This document shows, one piece after another, positions 4,770-37,009 of a DNA stretch of 61,239 bases (its first letter is position 1; the number at the start of each line of letters is the position of its first letter). The position numbers and the translations under genes were made by a program. The notes beneath the pieces are model-generated. The model did not search any database. It was given only the letters and a program-made list of their open reading frames with translations, and had not been told where the DNA came from. The stretch is from Archaeoglobi archaeon. Lineage in GTDB: Archaea > Halobacteriota > Archaeoglobi > Archaeoglobales > Archaeoglobaceae. The stretch spans positions 1-61,239 of the forward strand of contig JAPDIX010000038.1 in the NCBI GenBank assembly GCA_029259345.1, written 5' to 3'.

Positions 4770-5566
4770 CAAATCACCTCTTCAACCCACCTCAACATGT
4801 CTGATAAAACGATTTCCTTCTCAGTTTCATTGTGAGGTTCATGATAGAACCCGTCGTAAGTTACAAATTTGCAGTATTTTCCTGCCCTCTCAGCAAATCT
4901 TTTGCTTGCCTCGTAAGAGGTTATTTTGTCCGCATTTCCATGAATTAGCAGTATGGGCTTTTTGAGCTTATCTGCATTCATTAACGCCCATTTTCCGGCA
5001 TTCAAGGACTCAAGAATGAATTTGGCGGAAATCTTGTTATGGACAAGCGGGTCGTTAATGTAATTCCTGACAACTTTCTCATCTCTGCTAATGAGTCTCG
5101 GGTCTATACCGTTTGAGAAAGTAAAGGAGGGTGCGATAGCGTTGAAAACTTTCAGGATGAAGTATATTGGTTTAGAAAGATCTTTTGGCAATGCAAGGAA
5201 GGGTGCAGAGATTATCCCACCAGTCAAGTCAGAGCTCCTTCTTAGAAGGAAATTGAGAGTAAGATTTCCACCCATGCTGTGGCCGTAGATAATTTTCGGA
5301 CATTCATAGTTGCAGTTATCGAGGAAAATCTGGATATCATCCATCAGCAAATCATAATCTGCATGCCCCCTCTTCCCCTCTGATCTGCCATGTCCTCTTA
5401 AATCGAAGGCTGCAAAAGAAAAACCGTGCTCGTTGAAGAATTTTGCCACATGCTCGTACCTGCCACAATGCTCACCAAGTCCGTGAACAAGGCAAATTGC
5501 AGCTTTTGGGTTCTCAACATCCCATCTTCTAAAATAAAGGCTTAGACCGTCTTTGGATTTCAACAT
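4769..5566 (-). CDS. Alpha/beta hydrolase, monoacylglycerol lipase/lysophospholipase family
   Basis: HGLGEH, DLRGHGRS, GHSMGG nucleophile elbow, HGNAD, HEPHNE. Confidence 0.9.
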   Translation of the reverse strand: MLKSKDGLSLYFRRWDVENPKAAICLVHGLGEHCGRYEHVAKFFNEHGFSFAAFDLRGHGRSEGKRGHADYDLLMDDIQIFLDNCNYECPKIIYGHSMGGNLTLNFLLRRSSDLTGGIISAPFLALPKDLSKPIYFILKVFNAIAPSFTFSNGIDPRLISRDEKVVRNYINDPLVHNKISAKFILESLNAGKWALMNADKLKKPILLIHGNADKITSYEASKRFAERAGKYCKFVTYDGFYHEPHNETEKEIVLSDMLRWVEEVI

Positions 5567-5570
5567 CGGT

Positions 5571-5891
5571 TTATCCTAAACATAAAAGATTAAAATTTTT
5601 CGCAACCTCTTTGATAAAGAGATAAGCCAGAACTGCTGCTATTATCGAAATTCCAAAATTCCTCGATTTGTAATATGCTAAGGCTGTCAGAATTAGGGCT
5701 AAAAGTCTTACCGAAAGTTCATGAGGTTCGAAAGTGAATGTTGAAGTGACAAACAGAGCAGAGATGATTGATGTCGAAGACAGGGTGAAGAACTCCTTTG
5801 AACTTTCGGAATCTCCGAAATTAAACTTCATTGGCAAGAACCTCATCAGGTAAGTCCCCAGAGCAACGATGAAGATTGCAATCTCAATCAT
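5571..5891 (-). CDS. azlD: AzlD-family branched-chain amino acid exporter small subunit
   Basis: GTYLMRFLP motif; small hydrophobic protein directly downstream of AzlC. Confidence 0.8.
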   Translation of the reverse strand: MIEIAIFIVALGTYLMRFLPMKFNFGDSESSKEFFTLSSTSIISALFVTSTFTFEPHELSVRLLALILTALAYYKSRNFGISIIAAVLAYLFIKEVAKNFNLLCLG

Positions 5892-6519
5892 TTCTCCACC
5901 CCGCAAGTAATGGGCCAGCTATCGCCGCCACAATGATGCCGAGAGAGCTTAAATTTACGAGATGAAAGGCTAAGGCTACAACTCCACCACCAAAAGCCGC
6001 TCTTAGATGTCTTTCCTTCAAATTGGGTAGCAGCAGGACGAGAAAAAGGGCGGAAAGAGAGAAAACGAGGGCTGAGGAAATTCTGTCATCGAGAAGAAAT
6101 GCTGAGCCTGCAAAAACCCCAATGGCTGTCCCTCCCACCCATGCAGAGTAAGCCCCAACCTCAAGCCCAATCAAAAACCTTTCATTCTCCTTCAAATTTA
6201 CAGAGGTTGCAAAAACCTCATCAGTGAGTCCGAAAGCTGAAATGTAGGGCATTCTCAGCCTGTAACTCTTAGAAATAATGGAGCTGTAAACGATATGTCT
6301 TAGATTGAGTAGTAAGGGAACGGGAATTGCGGTAAAGATGGATTTACCACTCAGAGTTATAAGGGCGAACTGGCTTGCCCCGGCAAAGATTAGGATTGAT
6401 GCAAGCAGCGTTTCCAAACTGCTAAAACCGAGATTTTTTGCTACCATTGCAAAGGTAAAGGCCACTGGAAGGTAGGCAAGGACGATAGGGAAGCTGTATG
6501 CCAAGCCCTTCCGGAACAT
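5884..6519 (-). CDS. azlC: AzlC-family branched-chain amino acid exporter permease
   Basis: FAGASQF, LNLRH and LTDEVFA signatures. Confidence 0.9.
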   Translation of the reverse strand: MFRKGLAYSFPIVLAYLPVAFTFAMVAKNLGFSSLETLLASILIFAGASQFALITLSGKSIFTAIPVPLLLNLRHIVYSSIISKSYRLRMPYISAFGLTDEVFATSVNLKENERFLIGLEVGAYSAWVGGTAIGVFAGSAFLLDDRISSALVFSLSALFLVLLLPNLKERHLRAAFGGGVVALAFHLVNLSSLGIIVAAIAGPLLAGWRND

Positions 6520-6595
6520 GCGGTGATTTTATCGTCTGACTTTTTATTCTTTTTGAAGTGAAAATTTTATTAATAATTTTCAACACACAGGAGGC

Positions 6596-7957
6596 GTGAA
6601 GGACGTGCTAATTGTTGGTGCTGGTGTAACTGGTAGCTTTATAGCCAAGGAGCTATCAAAATACAAGCTGGACGTGGTTGTTGTTGAGAGGAAGTCAGGA
6701 GCAGGTTTGGATCAAACAAAGGGGTGTTCTGGAATCATACATCCGCTACAGCTTCCCTTTGGTTCACTGAAGAGCAAGCTGTGCCTTAAGGGAAATGCAA
6801 TGATGGATGAAGAGGCTGATGAACTTGGATTCACCTTCAAAAGGGTTGGGCTAATTCTTGTAGCAACCAACTTCATAACCTTCCTCGCCATACCGCTCAT
6901 TCAGCTATACTTCAAGGTAAATGGGGTTAAATCCGGAAGGTTGAGCAGGAAAAAAATTCTCGAGATGGTGCCCAACATCAGAAGAGATATATGGGGTGGC
7001 TTGTTCTTGCCAACTGCTGGAGTGGTAAATCCAGTGGAGATGACAGCCTGTGCAATGAGATTTGCCAAAGCCAACGGTGTAGAATTCCACTACGATTGTG
7101 AAGTGACAGGCATCGAAAGGAAAGGAGAGGGGTTTGTTGTAAAAACCACAAAGGGTGATTTTGAGGCAAAGTGTGTCATAAACTGTGCTGGTCTGTATGC
7201 CGATGACATCGCGAAAATGGTTGGATATGACATGGAGATAACTCCCGGTAAGGGCACCCACGTAGTTTTTGAGGAGAGGGGTTTTTCCAACCATCTGGTC
7301 GTTGCCATCCCCCTTAAGCCGAACAAGAGGACCAAAGGTGGCGGTGCTCTAATAGGATTTGACGGTAAACCCATTTGGGGCCCGAATCTGATAGATGTTG
7401 ACAGCAAGGAGGACACATCGGTGAAGAAGAGGGAAGTTATGGGAATTATGGAGAAGTTCTCACCGCTATTCAGAAGAAAACCAGAAGGGGTTGTTGCATT
7501 TTATGCTGGTCTAAGGTCAATAGCTGGCAGAGATTTCGTGATCAATCAGCCTGTTGAAGGTTTCATCAACGTTGCTGGAATACAAAGTCCTGGACTGACA
7601 GCAGCTCCAGCCATCGCGGAGATGGTAATAGAGATGCTCTCATCTGTTCTGAAGCTGGAAAGAAAGGAAGAAATCAGAAAACCGGAATGGAGAAGGACTG
7701 CTGAGATGTCGGATGAGGAGCTTAAAGAAGCTATTGCCGAAAATAAGGATTTTGGAGAGATTATATGTGTGTGCAACATGGTAAGCAAGGCAGAAATTCT
7801 GAAGGCTTTGGAAGAGGGTGCATGCTTTGATACTGTTAGACACCTCACATGGGCAGGAATGGATTGCTGCAAGTGTCATGCTGACATCTTTAAGCTGATC
7901 GAGGAACGTGAGGGCAAAGTGAAAAAGGAGATGGAAGGGAGTGAGATCATATGGTAG
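6596..7957 (+). CDS. FAD-dependent oxidoreductase, glycerol-3-phosphate dehydrogenase (GlpA/LhgO)-like, with C-terminal BFD-like [2Fe-2S] domain
   Basis: GAGVTG Rossmann motif, SGIIH, INCAGLYAD, AGIQSPGLTAAPAIA, and IICVCNMV...CCKC. Confidence 0.85.
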   Translation: MKDVLIVGAGVTGSFIAKELSKYKLDVVVVERKSGAGLDQTKGCSGIIHPLQLPFGSLKSKLCLKGNAMMDEEADELGFTFKRVGLILVATNFITFLAIPLIQLYFKVNGVKSGRLSRKKILEMVPNIRRDIWGGLFLPTAGVVNPVEMTACAMRFAKANGVEFHYDCEVTGIERKGEGFVVKTTKGDFEAKCVINCAGLYADDIAKMVGYDMEITPGKGTHVVFEERGFSNHLVVAIPLKPNKRTKGGGALIGFDGKPIWGPNLIDVDSKEDTSVKKREVMGIMEKFSPLFRRKPEGVVAFYAGLRSIAGRDFVINQPVEGFINVAGIQSPGLTAAPAIAEMVIEMLSSVLKLERKEEIRKPEWRRTAEMSDEELKEAIAENKDFGEIICVCNMVSKAEILKALEEGACFDTVRHLTWAGMDCCKCHADIFKLIEEREGKVKKEMEGSEIIW

Positions 7958-36391: not shown

Positions 36392-36586
36392 ATGGATGAA
36401 AAGTTGCGTGAAGGCATGTTCAGGAATCTGAAGATGATGGCCTTTACGGGCACATTCGTCATGAGTTTTCTGATTGCAATGGTGGTTCTGCACTACTCCA
36501 AGGTTGATCTAACCCTTTCTATACTGCTTTCCGCTCTTTTTTCGGTTCTGATAACGATTGCAAGAGTTCTCTCGGAAAGGCAATGA
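36392..36586 (+). CDS. Small two-TM membrane protein
   Basis: 64-aa ORF with two hydrophobic helices and a GAGGG SD-like site. Confidence 0.6.
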   Translation: MDEKLREGMFRNLKMMAFTGTFVMSFLIAMVVLHYSKVDLTLSILLSALFSVLITIARVLSERQ

Positions 36587-36609
36587 TGAATTTGTCATAG
36601 TAGATAATA

Positions 36610-36622
36610 GAAAACTTTATAT
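36610..36622 (+). promoter_or_regulatory. BRE/TATA promoter of the downstream ncRNA
   Basis: GAAAAC-TTTATAT with TATA at 36616-36622, about 20-25 nt upstream of the paired 5' end of the RNA. Confidence 0.65.
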
Positions 36623-36640
36623 GCTTTCGCTCCAACAATT

Positions 36641-36797
36641 ATAGTCGCAGGGTAAACCGGTCTGAGGAGATGCTGATGGGTTGAACTTGGGATTTCGAGG
36701 GTAAAACCTCATGTCCTTGGTGTAAATCCGTTGGAAAACTCTGAAGGGAAACCTGAGGAGTTTTTAGAGTCTCCGAAGCCGGGCCCAGATGCGACTA
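36641..36797 (+). ncRNA. Unannotated structured RNA closed by a canonical bulge-helix-bulge motif (candidate circular RNA precursor)
   Basis: TAGTCGCA/TGCGACTA outer helix, GGGT/GCCC 4-bp helix, AAA and AGA 3-nt bulges, CCGG/CCGG inner helix. Three-way junction inside with G-U pairs, tandem GA and a GAAA tetraloop. Confidence 0.8.
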
Positions 36798-37009
36798 CTA
36801 TTCTTCACTCTAATTCTCTCATCGTTGATGTTTTTCTTAGGAAAAGACGGTCTTACCTCCCCCTATCAAGAGTTTTGATAAGCAGCATATCAGCTGGCAA
36901 CATCCCAGACACAGCCAAAATACCAAAATGTCCGCATCGAAGGTTGCGGACATAGTGAGAACTTTACGGGGAGTGTTGTGGATATAAACATCAAATACCT
37001 AAAAACCAG

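Follow-up and report, generated by a model that had tools for sequence, protein, structure and literature searches.

A probable stand-alone RNA gene of Archaeoglobus with ends resembling the pre-16S processing stem and a predicted circular product

The archaeal splicing endonuclease is known to act on tRNA introns, rRNA precursors, a small number of mRNA introns and a single permuted SRP RNA. A locus at positions 36642-36797 (+) of the 61,239-nt stretch of DNA analysed here (contig JAPDIX010000038.1, referred to below as the window) carries a BHB (bulge-helix-bulge) motif and raises the question of where the motif came from and what its product may be. A preliminary description read the locus as a structured ncRNA gene that stands alone on the + strand and has a promoter and a canonical BHB, and this part of the reading stood; its hint that CUGA words are functional elements did not. 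The same description overlooked that the flanks are a near-copy of the pre-16S processing stem and that the family is narrow, being confined to one genus and missing in near-complete relatives.

Architecture of the RNA gene

The 5′ strand of the BHB (36642-36660) consists of TAGTCGCA (36642-49) as outer strand, GGGT (36650-53), the bulge AAA (36654-56) and the inner CCGG (36657-60); the 3′ strand (36779-36797) consists of the inner CCGG (36779-82), GCCC (36783-86), the bulge AGA (36787-89) and the outer TGCGACTA (36790-97). These elements, the GA/GA stem and the two arms, all proposed earlier, are present together in the minimum-energy fold of 36636-36805 (+), which has a free energy of -73.6 kcal/mol and a z-score of -6.72 and is matched in stability by none of 200 shuffles. 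The fold runs from the outer helix through a central helix of 4 bp, with AAA and AGA as the 3-nt bulges, to the inner CCGG/CCGG helix, inside which lie a tandem-GA stem and then a three-way junction with two arms. If both bulges are cut after their second base, the standard BHB positions (36655/36656 and 36788/36789), the predicted excised piece spans 36656-36788 and is 133 nt long, with the junction GCCCAG/ACCGG, in agreement with the earlier arithmetic; predicted circle lengths among homologues are 127-134 nt.

Within the insert, the 5′ strand of stem I (CT-GA-GGAGA, 36661-36670) includes two pairs with double changes and faces a 3′ strand (TCTCC-GA-AG) that follows an A-rich junction strand, the two together occupying 36765-36778 in the fold and the alignment. 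Arm 1 (36673-36734) is a long interrupted hairpin by the fold and the alignments. In its internal loop, GAA (36683-85) faces GTA (36722-24), an arrangement that we take to resemble the loop E/G-bulge motif. Its tip, GAGGGTAAAACC (36697-36708), in which GG/CC closes a GUAAAA loop, is invariant among homologues (12/12 positions in all four homologous genomes), and AAC and GTA words flank it at similar spacing in G000, G004, G006, G007 and G009. We also presume a resemblance of the tip to the 690 loop of 16S rRNA (GGUGAAAU), which is an unconfirmed lead. Arm 2 (36735-36764) is a hairpin stacked on arm 1 and is the most covarying helix. The word GGGTAAA occurs twice in the RNA, in the 5′ half of the BHB (36650-36656) and in the invariant tip (36699-36705), and the GGGU of the tip, which never varies, could pair with the GCCC freed at the circle junction. 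A similar word, GGTAAAA, is contained in the intron hairpin of a tRNA gene at G000:C4:43533-43642, which ARAGORN called tRNA-Ser(gga) and which by eye looks like a tRNA-Asp(GUC) that has an intron and a canonical BHB. The RNA is single-copy, and its tip has one exact copy in the genome. Two properties speak against the circular scaffold proposed below: the G+C content of the RNA is only 50-53%, and by calculation the predicted circle taken alone has little stability at 83°C (+1.3 to -3.9 kcal/mol).

Upstream of the RNA, a BRE-like AGAAAA is followed by C and the TATA box TTTATATG (36609-36623, +), and a pyrimidine-rich tract, a candidate terminator, lies downstream (36798-36820, +), both as first noted. 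The predicted start site (∼36643-36646) coincides with the foot of the outer helix, and the spacing between promoter and RNA is like that of the tRNA, 5S and SRP promoters in the same genome. A BRE/TATA-like word precedes every copy, with 13-17 of 17 positions (36608-36624) kept in the four homologues, and all five genomic copies are trailed by T-rich tails, which are not alignable. The kept BRE/TATA word at this spacing and the T-rich tail argue for an independent transcription unit, and as judged from these sequence features the RNA is best read as such a unit rather than as a UTR element. A pseudo-palindrome, ATGATGAATTTGTCAT, lies just upstream of the BRE (36584-36599) and is a possible regulator site; related words precede the RNA in G006 and G004, and not in G007 and G009. 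A coding role was rejected, as the circle lengths (127-134) preserve no frame and the overlapping 74-aa ORF (36731-36955) belongs to no Pfam family.

How unusual is such a BHB in this genome? A loose BHB pattern gave 99 matches within the window, and a pattern with at most one G-U pair gave 56 matches genome-wide. Among 1,654 genome-wide matches to a 5-4-3 bp pattern with at most two G-U pairs, only seven still form the BHB when folded to their own energy minimum, and the window RNA is the most stable of the seven (-0.447 kcal/mol per nt, the next being -0.301); five of the six others, the five examined, sit inside long ORFs. The scan missed tRNA introns, so its counts are no census of substrates. 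We concluded that the bare BHB motif is common and that the combination of features is rare.

Conservation, distribution and descent

Covarying homologues, for which a search had been suggested, were found with covariance models and patterns. They occur in 5 of 92 Archaeoglobaceae genomes, all of them Archaeoglobus (5/11 genomes of the genus and 5/94 of the order); blastn, two covariance models and three patterns concur on the carriers G000, G004, G006, G007 and G009. Two further matches came from metagenomes, one of which (L020) duplicates the G004 sequence and was excluded from the alignments. The latter thus comprise six sequences, from the five genomes and one metagenome contig (L021), four of them from close kin. 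Outside the genus, none was found among 151 genomes of the phylum by covariance model (19 candidates scored per genome) or in 401 genomes of the phylum by an insert-only pattern. Within the genus, G002, G003, G005, G008 and G010 yielded no homologue at E ≤ 5, nor at the syntenic sites (G001, 54% complete, was left out). Three of these genomes are near-complete (G002, 96%; G005, 99%; G008, 98%), and the RNA is dispensable, because several near-complete relatives are without the gene. Thirteen short blastn matches with E ≥ 0.003 were discarded as chance. Of four pattern matches in genome contigs, two were bacterial, and the covariance model rejected both of these. Three pattern searches of viral contigs gave 0, 0 and 32 matches, and of the 32 one was a partial 15-bit hairpin by the model and none was credible.

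RNAalifold, run on a MAFFT alignment that had not been fitted to the structure, recovered the BHB and both arms, with double changes in 14 of 57 pairs. In the model-fitted alignment, which leans toward the structure, 94% of cells pair, versus 25-52% with the partners slid, and the outer and central BHB helices are paired in 100% of cells. Changes in the BHB helices run from C-G to U-A, from G-C to G-U and from U-G to C-G or U-A, and many BHB pairs never vary across the six sequences. The lengths of the motif are kept in all six: the central helix has 4 bp, and on each strand a bulge of 3 nt lies 3′ of it. Indels sit just inside the BHB and none within it. In arm 2, both sides have changed in 6 of 11 pairs. 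With six sequences, four of them close kin, this covariation is suggestive and statistically insecure, and the compensatory changes suggest a structure under selection. Among long stretches, conservation is highest in the BHB strands (14-17 of 17 positions), and in G006 and G009 arm 1 keeps 27-33 of 64 positions (<55% identity) and arm 2 keeps 12-17 of 30. At 70°C, the outer and central helices have pair probabilities of 0.82-0.99 in all six sequences. The inner helix is firm in G000, G006, G007 and L021; in G009 a C-A mismatch weakens it (pair probability 0.44-0.58), and in G004 it competes with a rival register (0.43-0.61), and both conditions would hamper an EndA of narrow specificity.

The window RNA is flanked by a 64-aa gene of no Pfam family and by a convergent gene with an AIR-carboxylase domain. 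The upstream 64-aa gene is common to the G000, G004 and G007 loci, and the neighbours in G009 and G006 are unrelated, which makes three neighbourhoods. This hydrophobic 64-aa gene (window 36392-36586) is present in 9 of the 11 genomes of the genus and adjoins the RNA in three carriers only. The G009 copy (contig G009:C2, L078:8575-14306) stands at the end of a toxin-antitoxin-like stretch beside an integrase, with genes including a PBECR2/DUF2283 pair and PIN-like ORFs. In G004 only, the 64-aa gene adjoins a tailed-provirus-like region (G004:C48, L080:3826-16011) with a baseplate J gene and a tape-measure-like ORF. That region also encodes a 347-aa reverse transcriptase (RVT_1) and looks like it holds a diversity-generating retroelement, with repeats of the 3′ end of the target at ∼4880-5700; the target gene itself (5612-7222, 536 aa) is tail-fibre-like. 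An IS200/IS605 omega RNA was rejected, as the ORFs scanned beside the RNA in G000, G004, G006, G007 and G009 are of other families and not tnpB or tnpA. In the EndA tree, G006 is the sole carrier among five close kin. The main split of the RNA tree is also that of the EndA tree, which fits vertical descent with losses; this is the simplest reading, and assembly gaps may explain some of the absences. We concluded that the RNA gene is real, conserved, undescribed and narrow in range, with a BHB-released circle by prediction.

Likeness of the flanks to the pre-16S processing stem

The pre-16S stem of G006 reads CAGCA GAGC AAA CCGG on one strand and CCGG GCTC ATA TGCTG on the other, almost the ends of the RNA itself. 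The BHB module of the window agrees with the 16S stems of G004, G006 and G024 at 22-23 of 28 positions, whereas the background of 1,653 BHB-shaped genome matches, compared with the same stems, averages 6.4-6.8 and reaches 17-19 at most. Against the 23S stem the module scores 16/28 and against five tRNA introns 6-16/28. In its own genome, the 5′ strand of the RNA is identical to the pre-16S 5′ strand (C78:267-253) at 13 of 15 positions, and its 3′ strand aligns with the 3′ strand of Archaeoglobus pre-16S stems. For the wider comparison 16 loci were used (16S flanks L073, L074, L085-L091 and L094 among them), and G032, in which no 16S BHB was found, and G018, which gave only a spurious one, were excluded from the identity ranges. 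Identity of the six RNA modules to the 16S stems of five Archaeoglobus is 22-25 of 30 positions, to those of other genera of the family 20-25 (two genera) and 14-18 (a third), and to those of six genomes of other families 5-13. The sequence of the pre-16S stem is strikingly conserved across genera of the Archaeoglobaceae (GGGCTTGCCAGCAGRGYAAA...), unlike in the other families of the phylum, which suggests a sequence-level constraint on the stem itself.

True BHB substrates of the lineage share 14-16 of 28 positions, so part of the 16S likeness may reflect a shared preference; the 16S match is clearly above the other substrates, and by sequence the BHB flanks nearly copy the pre-16S processing stem of the same organism. 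The BHB probably descends from the 16S stem by duplication and not by convergence. The central helix of the RNA (GGGY/GCCC) is nearer to the stems of other genera (G023, G024) than to the present GAGY/GCTC of the genus, which suggests that the duplication is old. The insert shows no clear rRNA origin: compared with the G006 rRNA operon, SRP RNA and 5S RNA it did not exceed shuffles, and the best model match in the rRNA operon, near the 5′ end of 16S, scored 14 bits (E ∼0.02), too weak to use.

Predicted processing and possible roles

The gene is very probably real and transcribed. Its transcript, ∼155 nt in length, would start at ∼36643-46. Since the ends are a near-copy of the pre-16S stem, cutting by EndA and joining by RtcB are predicted: EndA would cut both bulges (36655/56 and 36788/89), RtcB would join the piece into a 133-nt circle, and two outer pieces of ∼12 and 8 nt would be left over as an expendable by-product. 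EndA is encoded in 10 of 11 genomes of the genus, including all five carriers, and RtcB in 5/5 carriers. The A. fulgidus EndA is described as narrow in specificity and in want of a canonical motif (PMC6379350), and BHB stems are given as required for circular pre-rRNA in another report, which credits Tang et al. with the first suggestion of circular pre-rRNA in A. fulgidus (PMC7038931). We consider cleavage of the transcript by EndA likely, and somewhat favour the circle as the form that accumulates and works.

Six RNA-seq runs from two studies of a G006-like organism were all available as assembled contigs, which drop such forms, and none of the six showed the junction or a loose end. The contigs covered the whole RNA in X1 and X2, nearly all of it in X3, part of it in X4 and none of it in X5 and X6. 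One X3 contig (depth 5.8) ends at L026:1636, one base off the predicted 5′ cut (1637), and runs through the 3′ cut; a lone contig end is no evidence. Reportedly, Tang et al. 2002 (PNAS) listed 86 A. fulgidus small-RNA candidates; we found no published description of this RNA, and the 86 could include it. In PMC12558985, A. fulgidus RNA-seq was screened only for known circle classes, and Table S3 of that paper contains no A. fulgidus sheet.

Our overall reading, to which we give an even chance, is of an RNA gene with 16S-stem-like ends, a "mini pre-16S", whose product is predicted to be cut and circularised and is likely a heat- and exonuclease-resistant, protein-binding scaffold. The circle would display the GAGGGUAAAACC tip and the GAA/GUA loop; whether these two features are shown to a protein, and do not base-pair with a target, we judge to be about evenly balanced. 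The protein-binding role rests on exclusion (no conserved C/D boxes, no H/ACA pocket, no target that stands out, and normal housekeeping RNAs in the carriers) and on anatomy. Of the three families tried as candidate partners, none tracks the RNA: TROVE scored 0/5, a Lig_C RNA ligase 5/5, and Piwi 2/3 in carriers and 0/2 in non-carriers.

In the strongest rival reading the RNA acts as a dummy pre-16S substrate, whose stem would recruit, titrate or report on the machinery of 16S processing (EndA, RtcB or a factor that reads the sequence of the 16S stem), with the circle as a by-product or a linear form as the active one. This is unlikely in our estimate, and it has some points in its favour: the BHB strands are conserved (14-17/17) beyond the needs of an enzyme that reads structure, they keep the sequence of the 16S stem, and in Haloferax both rRNAs depend on the 16S stem for the control of their maturation (PMC7038931). 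Against it, the covarying arms and the invariant tip of the insert would be superfluous in mere bait, 16S-proximal spacer words found family-wide (e.g., TATTCACC) are missing from the RNA, and several relatives do without it. In a related proposal, which is similarly doubtful, a "mini pre-16S" circle, created when an archaeon copied its own 16S processing stem and bearing an rRNA-like U-turn tip, would couple to or tune ribosome biogenesis by competing for the 16S-processing machinery. If true, the copying of rRNA processing stems would be a general archaeal route to new circular RNAs.

It is rather improbable that the gene is a vestige or a selfish cassette, that is, an internally replaced duplicate of an rRNA precursor that persists without a host function. 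Its patchy occurrence (5/11 genomes of the genus, with G006 alone among five kin in the EndA tree) would agree with such an origin, as would the different neighbours in three lineages and the place of the G009 copy, which closes a stretch rich in toxin-antitoxin genes not far from an integrase. But the gene is single-copy, the RNA and EndA trees share their main split, the compensatory changes and the conserved promoter argue for selection, the insert is without rRNA, SRP or 5S likeness above shuffles, and none is found in viral contigs.

A guide or antisense RNA (box C/D, H/ACA or directed against ribosome-binding sites) released as a circle is very unlikely. The RNA does contain CTGA four times, as had been counted, and an ATGCTGA word like box C′ in G000, G004 and G007; the 3′ bulge (AGA/ACA) reads like an ACA box; and the tRNA-Trp intron is a circular C/D guide (PMC12558985). 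The CUGA words had been mentioned with a hint at box D or K-turn (L7Ae) elements. That idea fails because they are not conserved: G009 and G006 each retain a single CUGA, in positions that differ, and box C is not conserved either. A box C/D sRNA was rejected on the same grounds (the boxes C, RUGAUGA, and D, CUGA, are unconserved), and the tandem GA pairs are without a K-turn bulge. H/ACA sRNAs have a free 3′ ANA box, an open pseudouridylation pocket and a K-turn or K-loop in the upper stem (PMC4652768), and here the AGA/ACA is a BHB bulge before a paired strand and the folds have neither pocket nor K-turn. No complementary target stood out: the best other genome match to the RNA by blastn had an E-value of 0.18, sites complementary to the tip numbered 18 versus a shuffled mean of 10.4 (11 of 100 shuffles being as high), the G006 rRNA operon holds no complement of the tip of at least 8 nt, and the insert has no antisense match to that operon above shuffles; tRNAs were covered only by the genome-wide blastn.

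Other classes fare no better. The Rfam scan bore out that the RNA is not a tRNA, an rRNA or a member of an Rfam family, the only matches in the window being two tRNAs elsewhere; for the linear locus and the most distant homologue nothing credible was found at E-values up to 10, and there is no host tRNA or rRNA around or inside the BHB at the locus. The hammerhead consensus has a CUGANGA core, GAAA, three stems and an NUH site; CUGAGGA is present in five of six sequences and absent from G006, and visual inspection shows neither a stem I nor an NUH in register, so this candidate was rejected. A permuted or degenerate 5S, SRP or RNase P RNA, circularised like the SRP RNA of Thermoproteus, is largely refuted and hardly credible despite a three-way junction and a size like those of 5S and a known permuted SRP RNA with a terminal BHB (PMC4731332), as carriers have normal 5S (5/5), SRP RNA (5/5, one truncated where its contig ends) and RNase P RNA (4/4 carriers tested) and the RNA has no Rfam match to them at E 10.

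How, then, does the predicted scaffold compare with known systems? The Archaeoglobus pre-16S stem has the same BHB geometry and mostly the same sequence on both strands (PMC7038931, PMC7714728), and the same enzymes are predicted to act. The RNA encloses a ∼105-nt two-arm insert, whereas the pre-16S stem encloses a 1.5-kb rRNA; unlike pre-16S, it has its own promoter, lies outside the rRNA operon, has tiny outer pieces and no leader RNA or tRNA-Ala, and is found in only part of one genus. The permuted SRP RNA of Thermoproteus likewise comes from a stand-alone ncRNA gene, in which a BHB is formed between leader and trailer, and the stable circle is the mature form, with a known family, known partners and a sequenced junction (PMC4731332); in contrast, the window RNA belongs to no known family, and its carriers have a normal SRP RNA. 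Small BHB-released circles, as predicted here, are also made from the tRNA-Trp intron, a C/D guide, and the intron in the 5′ UTR of Haloferax HVO_1309 (PMC7714728, PMC12558985). These two are introns of a functional host RNA, whereas the window RNA has no host tRNA or mRNA, and C/D boxes are not conserved in it. BHB-released circular RNAs are already known, and what is new here is a BHB module that is a near-copy of the pre-16S stem.

We take G006, a complete genome, to be likely A. fulgidus from its gene content and its 305-residue EndA, and presumably a cultivable species whose EndA has been crystallised, so that, unlike for most candidates from uncultured archaea, cleavage, circularity and partners are directly testable. 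A gene with a structured circle of no known family as its sole product would add a class to the BHB-processed RNAs, and its visible descent from the organism's own 16S stem would show how such genes originate.
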